A stretch of DNA of 19,909 nucleotides from assembly GCA_030378105.1 (NCBI GenBank), contig JAUCGL010000088.1, positions 1 to 19,909 on the forward strand. The letters are read 5' to 3'. This DNA comes from Candidatus Halobeggiatoa sp. HSG11 (lineage in GTDB: Bacteria; Pseudomonadota; Gammaproteobacteria; Beggiatoales; Beggiatoaceae). The notes under the pieces were generated by a model that was given only the letters and a program-made list of their open reading frames with translations, was not told the origin of the DNA and did no database searches. The position numbers and the translations under genes are program-made. This document shows, in pieces, positions 3,415 to 15,661 of the stretch (position 1 is its first letter; each line of letters begins with the position of its first letter).

Positions 3415-3655
3415 TTGAATCAGAATTAACAGAATTATAGAATTTTCAGGATAAATTCACAAACTTATTTGGTTTAATCCTGTCAATCCTGATTCTGACA
3501 ATTAATTCTCAAACAGTTGCAAATCATATAATTTTCTGGTTAAATAGATTGTAAGTAGCTTGTGGGCAGTTTTTCGACAACCCCAAGCCTAGACAATTAA
3601 CTATTATCACTAGTCTTGCCGTGCAATCATTATAGCATGGTGACTTGCTTCCAAA
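3415..3655 (-). mobile_element. Truncated IS1-family remnant: the 3' part of the insB-like transposase ORF plus the IS end. About 85% identical to 10124..10335.
   Basis: Direct alignment to 10124..10335 (shared tgcaaatcatataattttctggttaaatag and caaccccaagcctagacaattaactat...tagtcttgccgtgcaatcatta). That region on the minus strand encodes the InsB-like C-terminus CTARLATIVNCLGL. Confidence 0.55.
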
Positions 3656-4677: not shown

Positions 4678-4712
4678 TCTGAATCAGGATTTTCAGGATA
4701 AATTCACAAGCT
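4678..4712 (+). repeat. Solo IS1-like end fragment (ctgaatcaggattttcaggataaattcacaagct).
   Basis: Matches the ends of the 3415, 7437 and 10124 copies. Confidence 0.6.
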
Positions 4713-4806
4713 ATAGACATTCATAAAAATACATTTGTGTGAAACCTGCGAGGTTTTGGAAACCTCGTAGGTTTTTGTGAAGTTATTTATCTGAAAAACT
4801 ATAGTT
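4706..4806 (+). repeat. Hairpin-containing ~100-bp MITE-like element (family H). Core hairpin: aaacctgcgagg-ttttggaaa-cctcgtaggttt.
   Basis: Near-perfect 12-bp stem with one G-U pair. Whole element matches the reverse complement of 10878..10985. The hairpin module is related to 17984..18018. Confidence 0.7.
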
Positions 4807-4855: not shown

Positions 4856-7408
4856 TTAAATATTACTCACCAACAATTCTGGCCGACAACTTGTCCAATC
4901 AACCTGTTTAGCTTCTTTAACTTCAGTTTTTAAATCAATATCTTCTTCCTCTTCAATAAGCACTAATTCGTTAGCAATAAAATCGGCTGGGGAAGGTTGG
5001 CTGCCAGTTAAATGGAATACATAGAAAGTGCTTGGTTCCATTATGTCTTCAATGGTGCAAGGTCGTCTCATATGGGCGGCAGCATTGAGGAAATTGATAC
5101 CAAAAGCTTTTAAGGCTCCGGTTAAATCAACATCTATGGACTCAATTGCTACTTCGCCATCTAAACCCAAATTTGAGGAAGCACTTATTAAACTATTTGG
5201 AGAAGTTATGAATTGGTCAGCAACAATGCGAATATTGCCACCATGTCCTGCATCAGCTTGGGCTTTGATTTGACCTTGATTCAATACCACGAAATTGGGA
5301 TTTTCAATCGTTATATTGCCTCCATCCCCGCTACCACCTTGTACGCTGGTAGTCATTTGCCCTTCTCGCAAAAACAGTAAGTTTGGAGTGACGATAGTCA
5401 TATTACCACCGGTGGCGTGTTTGGCAGAGGTAGTGATTGTGCTACCATTGGTTATTTTTATCGTATTGGCTTGTACGGCAACATTACCGGCATTACCGGT
5501 TCCCATAGCGTTAGCTGTAATTATTCCACCATCTTTAATGTTAAGATGATTGGTTTCCACTTTAACATTCCCACCTTGTCCAATACCTAAAGATTGAGTA
5601 GAAATAGTACCAGCAGAATTGGTGATATTATCCGTAGCAATAACATGTACATTGCCACCAGGACCTTGTCCAATAAATATTTTTTTTCCTATCAAACCAC
5701 CGCTAGCACTGTTAATTTCAGAACCAGCTCCCATGAATAAATTATTTATGCTAACAGTGACATCTCCAGCTACACCTTCACCAAGCGTACCTGCACTAAT
5801 CCCGGCATAATCATCTATAATAAGATCATTAGCAGCAACAGAAATATTACCGGCAGCACCTTTACCAAAACTCATAGTGACAATGCCAGATTGGTTATTT
5901 TCAAGAGTAATCACACTGATAATAAGTAATCCTAAACGTCTTCCACTTATAGACATTGTGTTGGAGTTAATGTTTATTTTGCCGCCATTTCCATCTCTAA
6001 AAGCTGTGGATGTAATCAGACCACCACCGGTTATAATTATTTTATCGGCATTCACCGTAATGTCATTGCTGTCAGATATTCCATAATTATCGGTTGAAAT
6101 CGAACCACCAGCTATATTTAAAAGTCCAGTAGTGATAGTAATACTACCTGATTTTCCACCATTGTAGGAGGTCACAGTGGCTAAAGTACTAATATTATCT
6201 TGTTTAGTAGTACCCAGAATAACAACCCTTCCCTTTCGTCGACCTGATATAAAAACGGATTCCGTGGCATTAATATTGATATCGCCACTTTGCCCTTTGC
6301 CATAGGTCTCACTACCAACGATACCTCCTTTATCCAGTAATATTTGTTTGGCTTTGATCGATATATCACCTGCATCACCGGTATCAAAATTGGTGCTTCC
6401 AATGACGCTTCCAGTGACTGTCAAATAAGGAACATTAATAGTTATAGCACCCGCATTACCACTATCCATCGCGTCATTCATTATAGCGTAAAATTCTCCT
6501 TTAATATCAATACTATCTGTCAATTTCAGGTTAATACCCTTACCATTCTCATCGGCCATCGTCTTGGCTTGAATGACCGCATCATCCATGAAAAATTGTC
6601 CACCACGAACAAAAACACTGCCACTGCCTCTACCACTGACTTCCATTAAGGTATTATTAGCTGTTATGGTTCCACCTTCAGCATTCAAGTCTAATCCAGA
6701 CTCGCTTGGAATAACTTCACCTTGAGAAGCTACACTCGCCAAATTAATTCGTCCCGCTAGTGCAGATAATTTAGAACTAGCAAAAATCACCATGAATCCT
6801 TGTTCATCAAACACTATCGGAGAATTACCGTTCAAATTTAAATCTCCACCAATTAATGATAAAGTTTGTCCATAAGGCACAGCCAATGTACTGTCTTGTG
6901 TAGAAATTGATTTGGGAGAATCAGTCAAAAAACCAAAACTTGCAATCGGCGCAATCGTCAACAAACTATCACTCGGATTAAGCGCATCAAACCGCCCATT
7001 TTCTCCCAAACGTAAATAGTCAGCAGTGCTGGCATGAAAAGAGCCTTGCACATCCAATTGAGCATTCGGCCCAAACATAATTCCATACGGGTTAAGAAAA
7101 TACATATCTGCATTGGGAATTGTCGAACGGATTAAACCATCAATGTTAGAAGGATTGCCACCAGTTACGCGACTTAAGATATTCTGCACACTGTTTGGCC
7201 CAGAGAAGGTGGCACTTTCCGCGCTATTCAAATTAAAGTCTTGGAAGCTGTGGAAGAGATTACCTCCATGTTGTTGACCCAAATCAGCACCAATTTGAAA
7301 ATCAGGACCGGGTAAATTGATATTTTGGCCGAGTGTACCGTCAGTTACTATTTCGGCGTTGGAGGATAAAGTGATGATTAATAAAGATGCTATTGTTAAA
7401 TGTTTCAT
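4856..7408 (-). CDS. TPS-domain (haemagglutination-activity / filamentous haemagglutinin N-terminal domain) exoprotein. Gly-rich beta-helix repeat body; TpsA-like, paralog 1.
   Basis: 850 aa. Signal peptide MKHLTIASLLIITLSSNA|E. TPS hallmarks: TDGTLGQ...GGNLFHSFQDFNLNS...NILSRVTGGNPSNIDG...FLNPYGIMFGPNAQLDVQGSFHAST (NPNGI-type motif). The body is GGNI/GxG repeats. TPS domain at ~6930..7350. Confidence 0.85.
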   Translation of the reverse strand: MKHLTIASLLIITLSSNAEIVTDGTLGQNINLPGPDFQIGADLGQQHGGNLFHSFQDFNLNSAESATFSGPNSVQNILSRVTGGNPSNIDGLIRSTIPNADMYFLNPYGIMFGPNAQLDVQGSFHASTADYLRLGENGRFDALNPSDSLLTIAPIASFGFLTDSPKSISTQDSTLAVPYGQTLSLIGGDLNLNGNSPIVFDEQGFMVIFASSKLSALAGRINLASVASQGEVIPSESGLDLNAEGGTITANNTLMEVSGRGSGSVFVRGGQFFMDDAVIQAKTMADENGKGINLKLTDSIDIKGEFYAIMNDAMDSGNAGAITINVPYLTVTGSVIGSTNFDTGDAGDISIKAKQILLDKGGIVGSETYGKGQSGDININATESVFISGRRKGRVVILGTTKQDNISTLATVTSYNGGKSGSITITTGLLNIAGGSISTDNYGISDSNDITVNADKIIITGGGLITSTAFRDGNGGKININSNTMSISGRRLGLLIISVITLENNQSGIVTMSFGKGAAGNISVAANDLIIDDYAGISAGTLGEGVAGDVTVSINNLFMGAGSEINSASGGLIGKKIFIGQGPGGNVHVIATDNITNSAGTISTQSLGIGQGGNVKVETNHLNIKDGGIITANAMGTGNAGNVAVQANTIKITNGSTITTSAKHATGGNMTIVTPNLLFLREGQMTTSVQGGSGDGGNITIENPNFVVLNQGQIKAQADAGHGGNIRIVADQFITSPNSLISASSNLGLDGEVAIESIDVDLTGALKAFGINFLNAAAHMRRPCTIEDIMEPSTFYVFHLTGSQPSPADFIANELVLIEEEEDIDLKTEVKEAKQVDWTSCRPELLVSNI

Positions 7409-7436
7409 TTTGTTTTCCGAATAAAGATTAACATAA

Positions 7437-7517
7437 TTATAGGATTTTCAGGATAAATTCACAAGCTAGTTTTATTCCATCTTGTTAATCCTCAAATTCT
7501 GTAAATCCTGATTCAGA
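7437..7517 (+). repeat. ~80-bp IS1-end-derived MITE-like element with imperfect terminal inverted repeats (aggattttcagga ... tcctgattcagac). Forms the 5' leader of TpsA paralog 1.
   Basis: Aligns with 10149..10210 (ttttcaggataaattcacaagctagtttt[a/g]ttccatc[t/c]tgttaat). Sits 29–110 nt upstream of the 7408 start, the same spacing as the copy upstream of paralog 2. Confidence 0.6.
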
Positions 7518-7526
7518 CAAAGACAA

Positions 7527-10103
7527 TCATTTTTTACAAGTTAAAGAAGCCAATTTTTCAGTTGAATTTTTAACCGAAACTGTTGTTTTAATAGGCAATA
7601 TTTCGGATAACAACGGTCCACTTGGCAATAAATCGTCCAATGAGTTAGGCGAACCTTCACTTGGTATAACAACAAAGCTACTCATATTTTCAGTTATCCT
7701 TTGACCACAAGGAGTTTTCATTTGATTACTAGCATCCACAACTTTATCTGGTAACACAACCAAAAAACCATCCAAATCAACATCTATAGACTCAATTGCT
7801 ACTTCACCATCCAAACCCAAATTTGAGGAAGCACTGATTAAACTATTTGGAGAGGTAATGAACTGTTCAGATTTAATACTTATGTTACCACCATGTCCTG
7901 CATCAGCTTGTGTTTTGATTTTGCCTTGATTTAACACTACAAAATTAGGATTTTTGATGGTGATGTTACCGCCACTTCCTACTCCCTTTGCAACACTGGT
8001 GGTTATTTCACTATTATTCAAATAAAGCAGTCTTGAAAGATTTGTTAATTCGATATTTCCTCCACCTGATAGAGTTGAGGCGGTACTTATGTTAGCATTT
8101 TCAGTTAATTGTATCTGTTGTGCTTGTAAATTAATTTGGCCAGCATCGCCAATACCATAAGCACGAGCGGAGATAGCTGAATCACCTTTAATATCCAAAA
8201 AATCGGTTTGTAAATTAATATTACCGCCTAGCCCATGAGTGTAGGTGTCAGTGAAAATTCCTGTTTGATTCGCTTGCGAATGTTGAGTAGTTAAACTAAT
8301 ATATTTTGATCGAATGTTGATACCACCACCATGTCCAACACCTATAAGCATTTCTGAAGTCGATATATCGTAAATACTATTACTCGCATTGATTTGCCCA
8401 CCTTCAGTGAGAATCAAATTTTCAGTTTGTAGGTCAATAGTACTAATTTTTTCACCCAAACCAAGTGATGATGCAGTAATTGAACCTTCCTCAGTCAAAT
8501 GAATGGTTTTGGCTTTCAACTTCAACTGTCCACCAGTACCAAGTAAAGAAAGACTTTGAATGCTACTTGTATTATGATTAACTTCCTGATTAGTACTTGG
8601 TAGAAAAATAATACCATCCCGTCGTCCAGATAAAAACAAGGTATCAGCCACATCTAATTGAATACTACCCGCTAATCCAAGGTCAGCCGCTGAAGTTGCA
8701 ATAAAGGCACCTGCTGTTAGATTGATATTATTCGCTTGAATATGAATATTAGCTGCATTACCTACACTAAAACTTGCACTAGTAATAATTCCTCCAACCA
8801 TATCAAGTTGTTGAGTGTTAATATCAATATTGCCTCCTAACCCTGATGAATAAGTCGTACTATCAATATAAGAGGGTAAATCTATAAACGGTACTCCATT
8901 GCGTATCCCACTTCCAACACCATATCCTGATATTAAAATAGATTCAGTTGCTTTAATAGTTAATAAACCACTTTTCCCACCAACAGATGCGTTAGAGATA
9001 CCAGCTCCATTTAAGAGAGATAACTGAGCTACTTCTATGTCAGTATTTCCACCAATAGTTTCTGCCATTGGATTGGCTGATATAGCTACTCTATCCAATA
9101 CTAATTTTGGTACTTTAATGGTTATTGAACCACCATGACCACTTCCAAATGCTTTGCTAGAAAAAGATTGAAGTCCAAGATGGTTCGGGTCACTAGTAGC
9201 ATATAATAATTCTGTCAATTGAATATCCATGAGGCCCCCATCGAAGTCTCCCAAAGTATTAGTTTGCAAGGCACTATCTTGCATTTGTAACCACCCACCA
9301 CGAATTTTAAGGTTGCCACTGCCTAAGCTACTGGTATCCACTAGAGTACGATTGAGAGAAATGTCGCCTCCTTGTCCGGTGATGGTTAAATCATTATTAC
9401 TCACAATCACTTCGCCACTCGAACCAATTGCTGTTAGATTGAGTGTACCGCCAGTGGTTTTGAGGAAGGAAGTTGCAAAGGTCGCATAAATATTCAAGTC
9501 ATCAAATTGGATTGGCAAAGTTCCCTGTAATTGTAAATCTCCACCAATTAATGACAAGGATTTGAATGGCGGAACTAACAAAGTACTGTCCTGCGTGGTA
9601 ATTGGAGCTGGTGAATCACCAAGGAATCCAAATGCTTCAATTGGAGCAATGGTCAACAAACTGTCACTCGGATTGCGAACATCAAACCGGCCATTTTCCC
9701 CCAAACGTAAATAATCAGCAGTGCTGGCATGAAAGCTTCCTTGTATGTCTAATTGAGCATTTGGCCCAAACATAATTCCATATGGATTGAGGAAATAGAA
9801 ATTTGCATTGGGAATTGTTGAGCGAAGTAGCCCATCAATATTGGATGGATTGCCACCAGTTACCCGACTGATTATATTTTGCACTGAATTTGGCCCAGAA
9901 AATGTTGCTGATTCTGAACTATTCAAGTTAAAGTCTTGGAAGCTGTGGAATAGGTTGCCGCCGTGTTGCTGGCCTAAATCTGCTTCGATTTGAAAATCGG
10001 GGCCGGGTAGGTTAATATTTTGGCCGAGTGTGCCATCAGTGATAACTTCGGCGTTGATTGATAGAGAAGTGACTAATAAAGGTATAGTTATTAAGTATTT
10101 CAT
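7527..10103 (-). CDS. TPS-domain exoprotein, paralog 2 (TpsA-like).
   Basis: 858 aa. N-terminal ~185 aa are ~90% identical to paralog 1, including all TPS motifs. Conserved C-proximal block GGNITIKNPNFVVLNQGKIKTQADAGHGGNI...SPNSLISASSNLGLDGEVAIESIDVDL. Divergent central Gly-rich repeats and a divergent 81-aa tail. AAGGA SD. Confidence 0.85.
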   Translation of the reverse strand: MKYLITIPLLVTSLSINAEVITDGTLGQNINLPGPDFQIEADLGQQHGGNLFHSFQDFNLNSSESATFSGPNSVQNIISRVTGGNPSNIDGLLRSTIPNANFYFLNPYGIMFGPNAQLDIQGSFHASTADYLRLGENGRFDVRNPSDSLLTIAPIEAFGFLGDSPAPITTQDSTLLVPPFKSLSLIGGDLQLQGTLPIQFDDLNIYATFATSFLKTTGGTLNLTAIGSSGEVIVSNNDLTITGQGGDISLNRTLVDTSSLGSGNLKIRGGWLQMQDSALQTNTLGDFDGGLMDIQLTELLYATSDPNHLGLQSFSSKAFGSGHGGSITIKVPKLVLDRVAISANPMAETIGGNTDIEVAQLSLLNGAGISNASVGGKSGLLTIKATESILISGYGVGSGIRNGVPFIDLPSYIDSTTYSSGLGGNIDINTQQLDMVGGIITSASFSVGNAANIHIQANNINLTAGAFIATSAADLGLAGSIQLDVADTLFLSGRRDGIIFLPSTNQEVNHNTSSIQSLSLLGTGGQLKLKAKTIHLTEEGSITASSLGLGEKISTIDLQTENLILTEGGQINASNSIYDISTSEMLIGVGHGGGINIRSKYISLTTQHSQANQTGIFTDTYTHGLGGNINLQTDFLDIKGDSAISARAYGIGDAGQINLQAQQIQLTENANISTASTLSGGGNIELTNLSRLLYLNNSEITTSVAKGVGSGGNITIKNPNFVVLNQGKIKTQADAGHGGNISIKSEQFITSPNSLISASSNLGLDGEVAIESIDVDLDGFLVVLPDKVVDASNQMKTPCGQRITENMSSFVVIPSEGSPNSLDDLLPSGPLLSEILPIKTTVSVKNSTEKLASLTCKK

Positions 10104-10123: not shown

Positions 10124-10800
10124 GCCTGAATCAGGATTTTCAAAATTATAGAATTTTCAGGATAAATTCACAAGCTAGTTTTGTTCCATCCTGTTAATTC
10201 TCAAATTCTCAAACGGTTGCAAATCATATAATTTTCTGGTTAAATAGTTGGTAATTGGTTTAGGGTAGTTCGTAAACAACCCCAAGCCTAGACAATTAAC
10301 TATCGTTGCTAGTCTTGCCGTGCAATCATTATTAATCCAAAACTTCGTTGGTACATCAAGGGCAGCAAATACCCATAATTGATGTTTTTTGCTCTGTAAA
10401 ATATGACCATAATTCATCCATTTGTACGAATAGTAAATTTAGTCCAATTGTTATGCAAAGAAATGTATGAAATACTTTACTTTTTTCACCAATAGCTTCG
10501 ACCCACCGTTCAATAGTTCTGACATCATGTCCTATAATATTATGCGATCTGTCCTACAGATAATCCACAGGAACACATTTTCGCAACCATTTCATATTCA
10601 TAAAAACTACCTTGCTTTTTAAACAAGCCTGAATACCTTGTTTCTGAAAAACGATGATTACCACCATGACACTTCAACATTTGTCGGGGGATAGAGTCAG
10701 ATTTTGTTGTATAAACACCATCTTTGGTTATTGTAATTCATTGGGTCTTGGTAGCAGGGACATTTTTTATCTGGACATAAAAGTTGTATTTTTGTATTAA
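10124..10800 (-). mobile_element. Degenerate IS1-family insertion sequence (~0.7 kb) with frameshifted/stop-interrupted insA-like and insB-like reading frames.
   Basis: Minus-strand translations: ITKDGVYTTKSDSIPRQMLKCHGGNHRF (cf. IS1 InsA ...[25 protein letters not shown]) and KMCSCGLSVGQIA (HTH-like). MDELWSYF then, after a frameshift, SKKHQLWVFAALD...CTARLATIVNCLGL (cf. IS1 InsB [22 protein letters not shown]...GERTMATLGRLMSLL). The size matches IS1 (~768 bp). Comparison to IS1 is from memory, not a database search. Confidence 0.6.
10175..10760 (-). pseudogene. IS1-family transposase (insA/insB-like) pseudogene with multiple frameshifts and stops.
   Basis: As above. The tracked ORF 10175..10417 is only its 3' fragment. 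Confidence 0.55.
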
Positions 10801-10877
10801 TTTTTTCGCACATATATTACCATAATTTTATTAAGTGTTTATATCTGTATAAAATATTATGATAACATACCTGCATT

Positions 10878-10985
10878 GGTTTGTGGGGACTACCGTTTTT
10901 CAGATAAATAATTTCACTTAAAACCTACGAGGTTTCCAAAACCTAGCAGGTTTCACACGAATGTATCTTAATGGATGTCTATAGG
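10878..10985 (-). repeat. Family H hairpin element, inverted copy (aaacctacgagg-tttccaaaa-cctagcaggttt).
   Basis: Reverse complement aligns with 4706..4806 over ~100 bp, including the flanking ttatttatctgaaaaa module. Confidence 0.7.
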
Positions 10986-11075
10986 TTCACCCCTTCGGGG
11001 TTAACAATTGATTCATAAACCCTGAAAGGGTTGAATGTGAATAACCACCGATGAAATCGGTGGAATATAGTAAGT
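10978..11075 (+). ncRNA. Candidate structured RNA or repeat element (family T): three consecutive hairpins capped by UUCG, GAAA and GAAA-type loops.
   Basis: caCCCCttcgGGGG; AACCCTgaaaGGGTT; CCACCGATgaaATCGGTGG. The stable tetraloops occur only when read on the + strand. A decayed inverse copy lies at 15120..15245. Confidence 0.4.
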
Positions 11076-11111
11076 CCCATAATTTGGCATTCTTCAACAC
11101 ATATTTGACAG

Positions 11112-11206
11112 TTATTTCGGGAATGAAACGAAGTGGATTTCCCAAAATCTAAATTAAGCAATCGTTTCGGGAAATACGTTTCACTTCATTCCCGAAACAA
11201 CTGTTC
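11112..11206. repeat. Nested long-range inverted repeat: outer arms tttcgggaatgaa[acg]aagtg / cacttcattcccgaaa with a 3-nt bulge; inner atttccc / gggaaat.
   Basis: Direct reading. No ORF; gene-free region. Confidence 0.6.
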
Positions 11207-11404
11207 ACTAATTTTTAATTTTTTACATCCATAAATTGGGATACAAAAATTAGTCAAAATAGCTGTTTTTCGACAGGCTAGTCAGATTCCCATTCCCATG
11301 AGGACATGATTTCGTGGGCATGACAATTAATTATTTTTATCAACGAATCTATTATAGTCAGTCATAGGCGTTCTGGATAATTCATAACTAATTGATATAT
11401 ATAT

Positions 11405-11485
11405 TTAATTATGAATGGTTAACTGTGAATATTTAATTGTTAATGAAAGTCAAAATCATTAATAATTAACCATTCATAATTAATA
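11405..11485. repeat. 18-bp inverted repeat (ttaattatgaatggttaac ... gttaaccattcataatta) with a ~40-bp AT-rich spacer, immediately 3' of the flotillin gene.
   Basis: Direct reading. Possible terminator or protein-binding palindrome. Confidence 0.5.
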
Positions 11486-11498
11486 ATTGCTATACCAT

Positions 11499-12878
11499 TC
11501 AATCCTTATCCGCATTTGATATATCAGAATCAGTCTTTGGCTTAAGAATTTTACCAAGAGTTTCAGGTAATTCAACACCAGACATATTTGCAAATTCATG
11601 TAATGGTGGCAAAATTTTTGTGATACTAGAAATCCAATTAGCTGTTGTTGAATGATCACCATTAGCTGTATCCATAACCACAATTTTATCAAACTTAATA
11701 TTGCTGATAGCTTTGGATTGAGCATCAACAATTTTTGGTAATTGCTCAATAACCATCAGAGTTGCGGCCTTATCTGGATCGCCACCAATAGCAGCTACAA
11801 TAGCCTTGAAACCATCAGCTTTTTTAGCCATTTGCTCATAGATACCTTTGGCTTGTCCAGACATTTCTGCTTTCAGTGCTTCACCTTTACCCTGCCCGTC
11901 AAGAACCATCTGAGCTTTTTTAGCTTCTGCATCAATAATTTGTTTATCTTTTGCAATTTCTGCTGGTACAACAACATCAGCTTGTTGAGTTGCACGTTCT
12001 CGTTCTGCACGAGCAACTTCAGCTTGCTGTTCTGCTACATAACCAGCTTCTTGAGCTGCTGCGGTTTGTACTGCTTCGGCAGAATCACCACGCCGTTTAG
12101 CATCTGCTTCTGCTTCTCGACGATCAGCGTTGGAATTAGCTTCAACAACCATTGCTTTATTTTCACCAGTTATAGCTCGTGCATTAGCATCAGCAACATT
12201 AACTCGTTCTTCTTGTTTAGCATTTGCGGAACCAGTTTCACCATCTCGCTGTTGTTGAGCAACTTGAACTTTAGCACGGTTAATCGCTTCAGCAGCAGCT
12301 TTTTCACCCAAAGCTTTCAAATAGCCTGATTCGTCAGTGATATCAGCAATATTGACATTAATAAGCCGTAAACCAATTTTTTTCAGTTCACTTTCGATAT
12401 TTTCCATCACTTTCTGGCTAAACGTGTCACGATCAGCATTGATTTCTTCAATATTCATCGTTGCGATAGTTGCTCGCAATTGGCCTAAAATAATTTCTTG
12501 GGCCATTGCTTCAAGAGCGTCTGGAGTGAGGCCGAGTATACGAATGGAAGCATTGTGCATAAGCTCTTCAGTAGTGCCAATACCAAAAGTAAATTTGGAA
12601 GGAACATTGACACGAATATTTTGTTTAGAAAGAGCTGATTTTAATGGAACATCGGTGGTTATTGGAGTTAAATCCAAATAGGAATATTGCTGGATAAATG
12701 GCCACACAAATGCGGCTCCACCATGAATTGGTAACGCAGATTTGCCGGCACCAATTTTACCATATTTAACTAGAATTTTATTGGAAGGACAGGTTTTATA
12801 ACGGCCAACAAATATTGAAAAAAAACCTATGATAAACAAACCAATGATGACTGCGACTACTATATAATATGTAAACAT
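11499..12878 (-). CDS. Flotillin-like SPFH/Band-7 domain protein (YqiK/FloT family).
   Basis: 459 aa. N-terminal TM helix (YYIVVAVIIGLFIIGFFSIFV). SPFH core, then a long Ala/Glu/Gln-rich coiled coil (EAEADAKRR...AEQQAEVARAERERA) and a flotillin C-terminal region. Confidence 0.85.
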   Translation of the reverse strand: MFTYYIVVAVIIGLFIIGFFSIFVGRYKTCPSNKILVKYGKIGAGKSALPIHGGAAFVWPFIQQYSYLDLTPITTDVPLKSALSKQNIRVNVPSKFTFGIGTTEELMHNASIRILGLTPDALEAMAQEIILGQLRATIATMNIEEINADRDTFSQKVMENIESELKKIGLRLINVNIADITDESGYLKALGEKAAAEAINRAKVQVAQQQRDGETGSANAKQEERVNVADANARAITGENKAMVVEANSNADRREAEADAKRRGDSAEAVQTAAAQEAGYVAEQQAEVARAERERATQQADVVVPAEIAKDKQIIDAEAKKAQMVLDGQGKGEALKAEMSGQAKGIYEQMAKKADGFKAIVAAIGGDPDKAATLMVIEQLPKIVDAQSKAISNIKFDKIVVMDTANGDHSTTANWISSITKILPPLHEFANMSGVELPETLGKILKPKTDSDISNADKD

Positions 12879-13020: not shown

Positions 13021-13677
13021 CTACTCTAAAATTTTAACGCCATCATCACTTCCCAACAACAATACATCAGCCCCACGAGCTGCAAATAAACCATTTGTCA
13101 CCACACCAGTTATTTGATTAAGTTTAGTCTCTAAAGCAACTGGTTCACTTATTTGCAAATTGTGTATATCTAAGATTAAATTACCATTATCAGTAACAAA
13201 ATCTTTTCTCCACATAGGTTGACCGCCAAGTTTAACTATTTCTCTTGCGACATAACTACGTGCCATTGGAATAACTTCAACTGGTAGCGGAAATTTACCA
13301 AGCATATCAACTAATTTACTATCATCAGCTATACACACAAACCGTTTACTTACCGCAGCCACTATTTTTTCACGAGTTAAGGCTCCACCACCACCTTTAA
13401 TCAAATGTAAATGGCGATTGGATTCATCAGCACCATCAATATACACAGAAATTTCATCCACACCATTTAAATCCAATACTGGAATTCCATGTGATTTCAA
13501 TCTTTCCGCAGTAGCATCGGAACTAGCAACTGTCCCTTCAATTTTATGCTTAATTGCAGCCAAAGCATCAACAAAATGATTAGCTGTACTACCAGTACCA
13601 ATACCAATTATTGTATTTTCAACAACATATTCTAAAGCTGCCTTTGCAACTTGTTGTTTTTTTTCATCTGGGGTCAA
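13021..13677 (-). CDS. rpiA: Ribose-5-phosphate isomerase A.
   Basis: 218 aa. GIGTGSTA motif, DGADE and [11 protein letters not shown] motifs typical of RpiA. Confidence 0.9.
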
Positions 13678-14654: not shown

Positions 14655-15026
14655 ATGTCCAACAAACTTAGAAGAAAATTTATTCGTCATCCAACTCATA
14701 TACCTATTAAAGTAGGCTATGTTAATGATGAATATTTGCACAATAAAGAATATCTGAACAATGTGAGTTTAGGCGGTATAGCATTTGAATCAGATTCTTA
14801 TTGGAAACCAGACACTATTATTAGTATTAATATATTAAATAATACCTTACAATTTAATGGTAAGGTTGCATGGTGCAGGCAAAACAAAAATTATTTTGAT
14901 GTTGGTGTCGAATTTATCACAGAACTAGATTCTACCAAGGATGTTGATAAAAAGGAAGGGCAAATAGAATCATATAAGCAAATGTTAATAGACATTGGAG
15001 AATGTGATCAGTACTATATTATATAG
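14655..15026 (+). CDS. Single-domain PilZ (c-di-GMP-binding) protein.
   Basis: RRKFIR (RxxxR) and NVSLGGIAF (D/NxSxxG) motifs at the expected spacing. 123 aa. Confidence 0.7.
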   Translation: MSNKLRRKFIRHPTHIPIKVGYVNDEYLHNKEYLNNVSLGGIAFESDSYWKPDTIISINILNNTLQFNGKVAWCRQNKNYFDVGVEFITELDSTKDVDKKEGQIESYKQMLIDIGECDQYYII

Positions 15027-15119
15027 GACAGTCTTCTATGATTATTAGGATGGATAACAGAAATTTCATGATGTCCACAGAACATCCATATTCCGTATAT
15101 CAGTTATTAACTTAAGATT

Positions 15120-15245
15120 ACGCAGAAAGCCTTTATATTCCACCGATTTCATCAGTGACTATTCACATTCAACCCCTTCAAGATTTGAATAACCCCAACG
15201 AGGTTAAAATTAAATAGCCATAGGTGAAACCTATGGAATCAAATT
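15120..15245 (-). repeat. Degenerate inverted copy of the family T three-hairpin element.
   Basis: Reverse complement aligns with 10978..11075 (ttgaatgtgaata...gatgaaatcggtggaata). The hairpins are partly disrupted. Confidence 0.55.
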
Positions 15246-15399
15246 AAAAATGTTCTCTGCGTCAACCATCAGCTATTTAGGAAAGATGTCTAATAAAATT
15301 ACACCTCTCCTTTGAAATTTTTTTCTTAATTTTGGGGGGGAGTGAGCAATTACCTTACAATCAATCACTGGACCTGCCAAATTATTTAATTATTAATAT

Positions 15400-15661
15400 A
15401 TATTAATAATTAAGAAATTGTATTTATTTTATTAAACCATGTCTTATAATAATAATAACATTATATTTTTTATATATGTTATAAAATACAAAATGTTATG
15501 TCTATTTAACCTATTTTAACGTTAAAAATAATAAAAAAATATAACCATATTCTTCAATTTTTTGTTATTATCTGTATATTAATAAGCATTTCAACATATA
15601 ACAATACTTTCTTTAAGTATTTTATAACTTTTACTTAATAAATACCTGATTTAACAGAAAA
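15400..15661 (+). promoter_or_regulatory. Extremely AT-rich (>85% A+T) upstream region of mrcB. Probable promoter/UP-element region.
   Basis: Composition only; no sigma-70 boxes confidently assigned. Confidence 0.3.

Follow-up and report, generated by a model that had tools for sequence, protein, structure and literature searches.

The contig JAUCGL010000088.1 of Candidatus Halobeggiatoa sp. HSG11 (19,909 nt; this whole stretch is called the window below) carries three small hairpins in a row at positions 10989-11063. These hairpins are dispersed intergenic repeat DNA, of which one copy is intact and others are decaying, and not an RNA gene. The repeated unit is a 46-nt module of two hairpins joined by a conserved linker, which was also found in other bacterial phyla and close to genes for an IS200-like Y1 transposase. 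Probably, the hairpins are copies of a single-stranded-DNA element resembling repetitive extragenic palindromic (REP) sequences and their REPtrons, rather than a structured RNA gene.

The two-hairpin module

The 46-nt unit reads AACCNN-GAA-NNGGTT, followed by the 11-nt linker NAAYRTGAATA and by R-CCNNNGRT-GNA-AYCNNNGG. It thus consists of a 6-bp hairpin with a GAA triloop (hairpin A), the linker, and an 8-bp hairpin with a GNA triloop (hairpin B). For the metagenome scan, the search pattern fixed only the invariant stem and loop bases and left the linker and six base pairs free, which avoids circularity. Together with the earlier loci, at least 168 instances with at least 104 distinct cores were obtained. 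Although its length was left free, the linker comprises 11 nt in nearly all of them. Its consensus is N-A-A-Y-R-T-G-A-A-T-A, then R, and columns 17, 18 and 23-26, none of which was required by the pattern, are conserved at 94-98%. The foot of hairpin B is ATAG in 63% or ATAA in 36% of the instances, with a conserved A before it.

In the seed alignment 99% of the cells pair, all six unconstrained pairs covary, and none of 500 shuffles reached the observed score. From this seed the covariance model R1 was built; R2 is a broadened model, the E-values of which are rough. Divergent copies collected with R1 show double changes in all 14 pairs (e.g. AAGCCC/GGGCTT, AATCCC/GGGATT, TGCCGC/GTGGCA and CTCCGGGT/ACCCGGAG), and 97.9% of their cells pair, compared with 26-56% for slid partners. 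The alignment of these copies was fitted to the model and leans toward structure, a bias of which the pattern-based set is free. On the strand carrying the GAA and GNA loops, the mispairs of the seed set comprise 31 G-T and 6 A-C. Since G-T mispairs are tolerated about five times more than A-C there, this strand is presumably the one that folds. With a C-G or T-A closing pair, GNA triloops represent a classic motif of very stable DNA mini-hairpins, which is in keeping with a role at the DNA level.

Within the 20 kb of the window, three full modules and a partial one are present, and both loci are divergent pairs. The features are as follows.

10989-11001, minus strand: putative shortened inverted module, hairpin-A-type stem-loop only, ACCCC-GAA-GGGGT (the plus strand reads ACCCC-TTC-GGGGT)
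11018-11063, plus strand: intact 46-nt module; R1 69.5 bits, E 2e-17; R2 68.2 bits
11018-11032, plus strand: hairpin A of the intact module, AACCCT-GAA-AGGGTT, 6 bp, GAA triloop
11033-11044, plus strand: linker of the intact module, GAATGTGAATA plus A
11045-11063, plus strand: hairpin B of the intact module, CCACCGAT-GAA-ATCGGTGG, triloop
15140-15185, minus strand: full-length decaying module, AATCTT-GAA-GGGGTT GAATGTGAATAG TCACTGAT-GAA-ATCGGTGG; R1 50.2 bits, E 9e-12
15191-15236, plus strand: third full-length module, AACCCCAACGAGGTT AAAATTAAATAG CCATAGGT-GAA-ACCTATGG; R1 49.7 bits, E 1e-11; R2 50.8 bits

The R1 E-values were computed in a 693-kb search, and those listed are far beyond chance. 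As DNA, the intact module folds to exactly two hairpins (-12.5 kcal/mol, z = -6.35). In the third module hairpin A is degenerate and hairpin B intact (z = -4.15 for the DNA fold). Compared with the intact copy, the decaying minus-strand module has five altered stem positions, all of which give G-T pairs on the module strand, and its DNA fold is weak (-3.3 kcal/mol). The stem-loop at 10989-11001 aligns with R1 model positions 2-14 (13.8 bits, E 0.29) and reaches 13.6 bits with R2 when filters are off (E 0.009). It may be a module remnant: by itself the match is weak, and it is backed by the context. The stem-loop and the intact module form a divergent, back-to-back pair with a gap of 15-16 nt.

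An earlier note on this DNA, made from the letters and a list of reading frames, had proposed three tetraloop hairpins (UUCG, GAAA and GAAA-type) with an RNA-level function on the plus strand. The hairpins in a row are real, but their registers had been misread: reading 10700-11400 anew, we found 3 nt in every loop. In hairpin 1 just 3 nt separate four C and four G, and a c(UUCG)g register corresponds to a 3-bp stem; hairpin 2 has a GAA triloop in place of the GAAA tetraloop. The special loops are not confined to the plus strand either, since on the minus strand hairpin 1 reads as a CCCC-GAA-GGGG stem-loop of the hairpin-2 type. With the tetraloops the argument for the plus strand is lost as well: the 126-nt hairpin stretch folds as RNA with -38.9 kcal/mol on this strand (z = -3.4 versus shuffles) and equally well, with -36.9 kcal/mol, on the minus strand (z = -3.6). 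A partly decayed reverse copy had also been placed at 15120-15245. On reading 14900-15500, a related, reverse-oriented stretch was indeed seen there (approximately 15134-15245, the 53-nt inverted repeat I2 with 89% complementarity). However, it consists of two modules, 15140-15185 and 15191-15236, which stand back to back with 5 nt between them.

Beyond the window, the exact linker plus trailing GGAATA was sought in 185,579 genomes, one per species. Matches were obtained in Candidatus Parabeggiatoa (6 loci), a Prolixibacteraceae metagenome-assembled genome (MAG), Saprospiraceae and Thermoanaerobaculia; five more lie inside coding sequence and are due to chance. The Prolixibacteraceae MAG holds at least 9 pattern-exact copies on 6 contigs, 4 of which end in the repeat. 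The module is also present in more than 120 metagenome contigs. A scan of viral contigs gave zero matches, and a blastn search of the hairpin region against PLSDB plasmids none. Modules occur alone, in inverted pairs of the face-to-face and the back-to-back kind (L001, L005, L011, L015-L017, L019, L106), and in direct tandem arrays that repeat every 64-72 nt (L092, L100/L134, L111, L069, L032/L112, L137). The array spacers of about 20 nt are repeated within an array, for instance ggcacggcgaac in L111 and aaaatgtgccacgacg in L100. The window contains no tandem array.

According to crude calls of open reading frames (ORFs), 85% of 256 modules found with a relaxed pattern lie outside ORFs of at least 110 aa. 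Between co-directional genes 43 modules have the same orientation and 37 the opposite one, i.e. there is no bias; convergent gene pairs host 35 modules and divergent pairs 17. The rpiA-fabI-pilZ stretch of the window is syntenic with a Candidatus Parabeggiatoa contig (L005; 84%, 78% and 45% amino-acid identity), but the orthologous intergenic sites differ: in L005 modules lie downstream of rpiA and none after pilZ, whereas the window shows the reverse.

Some individual copies show further peculiarities. At L004 3831-3860 (minus strand) a 26-nt insert interrupts the linker (gaatgtgaa, acgcagtaacgagcgtagcgagatca, tagcc), and at L009 3755-3805 (minus strand) a short foreign insert lies within hairpin B. 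Both are reminiscent of tiny mobile repeats that were described in cyanobacteria as being nested within other repeats. The variant AACCGTGAAGCGGTTCAATTTTAATAACCTCCGGTGCAACCGGAGG recurs in many different metagenomes with identical 5' flanks, gttaaaggaaga, and similar 3' flanks (L023, L027, L045, L047, L061, L064, L074, L079, L087, L099, L127), which suggests that either a single widespread organism carries a fixed copy or the variant is part of a larger element that is conserved. L081 contains two matches to Flavo-1 (RF01705) on the plus strand, 6286-6366 and 13073-13154, with 35 and 37 bits, below the gathering threshold of 42; their distances to the closest module-like match are about 100 nt for one and about 800 nt for the other.

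The linked Y1 transposase

ORFs of at least 90 aa from 135 loci were clustered by all-against-all BLAST. Leaving aside the largest clusters, which comprise spurious ORFs spanning the arrays as well as ubiquitous histidine kinases, one family recurs within a few hundred nt of modules, namely Y1_Tnp (PF01797). Six loci collected by way of the module (L054, L111, L003, L126, L044, L104) encode such a protein of 148-176 aa, and the four proteins scanned match PF01797 with E-values of 1e-17 to 3e-28. The six share 44-90% mutual identity. DH[LI]H and Y..NQ..HH are found in all of them and WQ in five. The tyrosine motif reads YVKNQEEHH, DHLH, WQ and Y..NQ align to IS608 TnpA, and the HUH, W and Y motifs of the linked proteins are intact. 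With the IS200/IS605 model NF033573 the proteins score 31-80 bits against a cutoff of 55, which four of the six reach or exceed, while the RAYT model NF047646 gives 27.6-29.6 bits for two of the six against a cutoff of 80. The closest solved structures are those of the IS608 and ISDra2 TnpA.

A database search returned 3,946 relatives at E <= 1e-10. The 120 listed among these are 70-99% identical to the query and mostly 148 aa long, and their 90%-identity clusters are mostly found on 1-3 contigs each. In the source databases the name is IS200/IS605 transposase for some and 'REP element-mobilizing transposase RayT' for others.

The association was also examined in the other direction, with five Y1 proteins selected on their amino-acid sequence alone, regardless of the repeat. 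Their genes are located as follows.

L140: Emticicia sp. SJ17W-69
L141, L142: one protein common to two Saprospirales MAGs
L143: a further NCBI assembly
L144-L146: a wastewater metagenome
L147-L150: JGI metagenome samples

R1 detected modules on both sides of all five genes, at distances of up to about 400 nt on the upstream side and of about 50-1,050 nt on the downstream side, and no match above 10 bits in the remaining ~7 kb of each 8.4-kb locus. At L143, L147, L140, L111, L054 and L104, the nearest upstream module has the orientation of the gene and the nearest downstream module the opposite one. In general several modules in both orientations are present on each side of the Y1 gene, with varying spacing and neighbours. 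No tnpB is present at the Y1 loci. In L141/L142 (3600-5100) the Y1 gene and its module cluster are embedded in a type I CRISPR-Cas locus, with cas5d/cas7 (DevR) on one side and cas3 on the other.

Possible mechanism and alternative explanations

HUH Y1 enzymes act on hairpins in single-stranded DNA: TnpA-REP of E. coli acts on GTAG-REPs, and the IS608 TnpA on the hairpins at the ends of its element. By analogy, the strand with the GAA and GNA loops would form its hairpins when the DNA is transiently single-stranded. The Y1 enzyme may then bind the second hairpin along with the linker and the conserved ATAR foot, and subsequently cleave and rejoin the DNA nearby. Such action in trans would disperse the modules and maintain them.

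Several points weigh against a REP-like element served by this enzyme. That the Y1 protein mobilises the module is inferred by analogy. A tblastn search with the Y1 proteins in the window and all collected loci gave no copy from Beggiatoaceae; for Thiomargarita, 13 IS200-like genes of unassigned subclass are reported (Flood et al. 2016, PMC4853749). As a member of class 1 (IS200-like), the protein stands outside class 2, that of the RAYTs (YIxxNP), and the canonical REP tag GT[AG]G is absent from the module. Direct tandem arrays with repeated spacers of about 20 nt (L092, L100, L111) are atypical of bacterial interspersed mosaic elements (BIMEs). Covariation and G-T tolerance cannot tell a DNA hairpin from an RNA hairpin. 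Finally, the numbers of distinct sequences do not equal independent evolutionary events, and copy counts come from contigs and loci instead of complete genomes.

Among the alternatives, a structured non-coding RNA has to be considered, in which hairpins and linker would serve as a protein-bound motif or small RNA (sRNA) and the arrays would be multi-copy RNA genes. Both stems covary strongly, G-U-type wobbles are favoured on one strand (31 versus 6), the decayed copy of the window pairs only via G-U and folds poorly as DNA, and one instance scores as Acido-Lenti-1, an Rfam sRNA, as a divergent member of the family on the opposite strand. Nevertheless, we regard an RNA gene as quite unlikely. 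Rfam yields no match to the whole window at gathering thresholds and nothing relevant to the element at E <= 10; the sub-threshold matches are miRNA-type noise from a neighbouring long palindrome. The module region of the window has 4 promoter-like sites versus 6.3 expected, none of them upstream of the module on the plus strand, and no terminator-like site. Modules show no preferred orientation relative to their flanking genes, and because inverted pairs are routine a transcript would carry both orientations. GNA triloops are not specially stable in RNA, and linkage to an HUH enzyme acting on single-stranded DNA fits a DNA element better. Consequently, the strand-specific structured RNA of the earlier note is not upheld. 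Its second suggestion, a novel repeat that is mobile or duplicated, agrees with a dispersed, multi-copy and cross-phylum module unmatched in Rfam. Among the checks it had named, known RNA families gave no match to the element of the window, further copies turned up in several phyla and many metagenome contigs, the stems covary in the pattern-based as well as the model-collected set, and the IS200/605 linkage it had asked about exists, the Y1 transposase being the sole recurrently linked gene.

A second alternative is an ordinary IS200-type insertion sequence (IS) and its decay products, similar to palindrome-associated transposable elements (PATEs) or to MITEs (transposable elements of the miniature inverted-repeat kind), so that the copies in the window would be orphaned ends of a self-copying IS. 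The linked proteins do score best as IS200/IS605 transposases (four of six with NF033573), their nearest structures are TnpA proteins of IS608 and ISDra2, and remnants of IS200/605 as well as MITEs abound in the genomes of Beggiatoaceae (Flood et al. 2016, PMC4853749). This origin is nonetheless unlikely: the flanking modules are inverted and not direct top-strand left and right ends (LE/RE), several of them with variable spacing lie on each side of the gene, tnpB is missing, and neighbourhoods differ between lineages so that no conserved boundary of a whole IS is visible. Moreover, 90%-identity clusters among the 120 listed relatives are mostly confined to 1-3 contigs, and subclass 1.2 of the Y1 proteins, which the linked proteins resemble, has been described as low-copy and without IS properties (Quentin et al. 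2018, PMC6006769). The regular 64-72-nt arrays and the module cluster within the cas locus of L141/L142 might suggest a guide-RNA or CRISPR-like array, or an RNA repeat like that of type III antitoxins, with units processed to small RNAs. This is highly improbable, because the 'spacers' repeat within arrays (ggcacggcgaac in L111, aaaatgtgccacgacg in L100), no cas, tnpB, iscB or toxin gene recurs beside the modules of the 135 loci, and most copies stand alone or form inverted pairs, with no array in the window. A TnpB/IscB omega-RNA was likewise rejected, as no such gene is present in the window and none recurs in the 135 loci.

The window contains further repeats. A repeat of about 95 nt is present in two copies, 10889-10984 (plus strand) and 4708-4805 (minus strand), with approximately 91% identity over a 68-nt core, and holds two small AAACCT-nnn-AGGTTT hairpins. 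Its first copy abuts the far side of the shortened minus-strand module, whereas the paralogue at 4708-4805 has a different continuation. Part of the repeat (ttcagataaataatttcac) is found in Candidatus Parabeggiatoa L017 as well. TATAG bounds the copy at 4708-4805 on both sides and flanks the locus of the intact module at 10980-10984 and 11066-11070. We rejected TATAG as a target-site duplication of the module, since the left copy belongs to the ~95-nt repeat and no homology follows the right one. A Thiomargarita MITE ending in TATAG direct repeats has been described (Flood et al. 2016, PMC4853749); the hupL MITE of Thiomargarita and the RepeatModeler table in the supplements of that paper proved unrelated or uninformative. 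About 45 nt downstream of the intact module, 11108-11204 forms an inverted repeat (40-nt arms, 83% complementary, 17-nt loop), from which the plant-miRNA-like sub-threshold Rfam matches originate.

A family of 82-nt direct repeats, 76-89% identical, is found at 3417-3498, 7419-7500 and 10128-10209, and its core AGGATTTTCAGGATAAATTCACAAGCTA also at 4686-4713. These repeats are intergenic, around the CHAT and TPS-domain genes, and a shared block follows two of the copies (3504-3633, 10204-10332). The genes at 4856-7408 and 7527-10103 (both on the minus strand) are tandem paralogues and share DNA blocks with 80-84% identity; their products, 850 and 858 aa long, carry an N-terminal TPS secretion domain of the filamentous-haemagglutinin type. 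Altogether, the genes of the window encode a CHAT/TPR protein, Bro-N, the two TPS-domain proteins, Band-7, RpiA, FabI, PilZ and PBP1.

Comparison with known systems

Among published Y1 proteins, TnpA-Y1 subclass 1.2 is the closest counterpart of the linked transposase. Its members have a median length of 148 aa and the motifs DH[IV]H, WQ and YIKNQKEHH, occur at 1.7 copies per genome with 36% identity between copies in Cyanobacteria and Bacteroidetes, and are listed as 'REP: no' and 'does not share IS properties' (Quentin et al. 2018, BMC Genomics 19:475, PMC6006769). The linked proteins agree in length (148 aa), motifs (DH[IVL]H, WQ, YxKNQxEHH) and Bacteroidetes hosts, and their clusters lie mostly on 1-3 contigs. 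Unlike the published subclass, every member examined here sits in a cluster of two-hairpin modules. The module itself extends beyond the hosts of subclass 1.2 to Gammaproteobacteria (Beggiatoaceae) and Acidobacteriota. Since the linked proteins fit subclass 1.2, the module looks like its previously missed cognate repeat. In the literature searched for the linker sequence and, after 2018, for REPtron, TnpAY1 and subclass 1.2, the coverage of which is incomplete, the repeat is not described.

A second relation concerns RF01687, the Acido-Lenti-1 RNA motif, classed as an sRNA in Rfam (Weinberg et al. 2010, PMC2864571). Read in reverse complement, the motif follows the same plan, with a 5-bp stem with a GAA loop, a linker of 11-12 nt ending in UAG and an 8-bp CC...GG stem. 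It differs in the strand annotated, which is the opposite one in Rfam, and in the sequences of the stems and the second loop. In L043 a canonical module (10516-10561, minus strand) is followed in tandem by two divergent units, about 200 nt downstream of a group II intron. The last unit (10394-10438, plus strand) scores 40.5 bits as Acido-Lenti-1, above the gathering threshold of 37, and R2 matches this interval in full length on the minus strand (18.3 bits, E ~3e-4). The intron and the run of three module-like units together span 10394-12582 (minus strand). Acido-Lenti-1 is reportedly sometimes found near group II introns. RF01687 has no match around the element of the window at E <= 10 nor in eight module-rich loci at E <= 5, and modules that flank Y1 genes gave none either. 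The module of the window was therefore rejected as a member of Acido-Lenti-1; only a relation of architecture, on the reverse strand, holds.

Taken together, we tentatively propose, with slightly less than even confidence, that the module is the missing cognate repeat of the 'orphan' subclass 1.2. It would thereby define a new bipartite system of the REP/REPtron type, with a near-invariant linker, in Bacteroidota, Beggiatoaceae and Acidobacteriota, and Acido-Lenti-1 would be a branch of the same superfamily of DNA elements annotated on the wrong strand. If this is true, a Y1 subclass that had no function would acquire one, a compact and well-defined single-stranded DNA substrate would become available for biochemistry, and a frequent reason for contigs to break off in Beggiatoaceae and Bacteroidota MAGs would be explained. 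As a caution, there may be at least one 'sRNA' motif in Rfam that is a DNA element, read from the wrong strand. The effect for the window itself is ordinary: intergenic repeat DNA.

In IS200/IS605 elements and PATEs a Y1 HUH enzyme recognises subterminal hairpins in the form of single-stranded DNA, using a short sequence 5' of the foot, and the module would be recognised likewise. The ends of IS200/IS605 elements have a direct orientation, lie on one strand and bound an IS that multiplies as a unit. At the loci described here the HUH and catalytic Tyr motifs were found, but no direct LE/RE ends bounding a repeated unit; the gene has a low copy number, and multiplication of the hairpin modules proceeds without it.

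REP-RAYT is the most thoroughly studied example of a transposase that, while itself held at about one copy per genome, maintains a population of tiny non-coding repeats. To our knowledge, such systems are so far known mainly from Proteobacteria and with single, GTAG-tagged palindromes. REPs, BIMEs or REPINs together with a RAYT (TnpA-REP) gene constitute a 'REPtron' (Nunvar 2010; Bertels and Rainey 2011; Ton-Hoang 2012; Quentin 2018). Like REPs, the module is short, mostly extragenic, hairpin-forming and multi-copy, and occurs singly, in inverted doublets and in clusters. Its stems vary by lineage while the architecture is kept, and a conserved tetranucleotide directly precedes the hairpin foot (ATAR instead of GT[AG]G). 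As in a REPtron, a low-copy HUH/Y1 gene is flanked on both sides by inverted repeats, both at the six loci found through the module and at the five genes chosen by protein. In contrast to REPs, direct tandem arrays with constant spacers are common, and linker and loop sequences are nearly identical across phyla. The design differs from that of REP-RAYT in that two hairpins and a conserved 11-nt linker (46 nt) replace the single palindrome, the protein belongs to another clade, and the system spreads across phyla.

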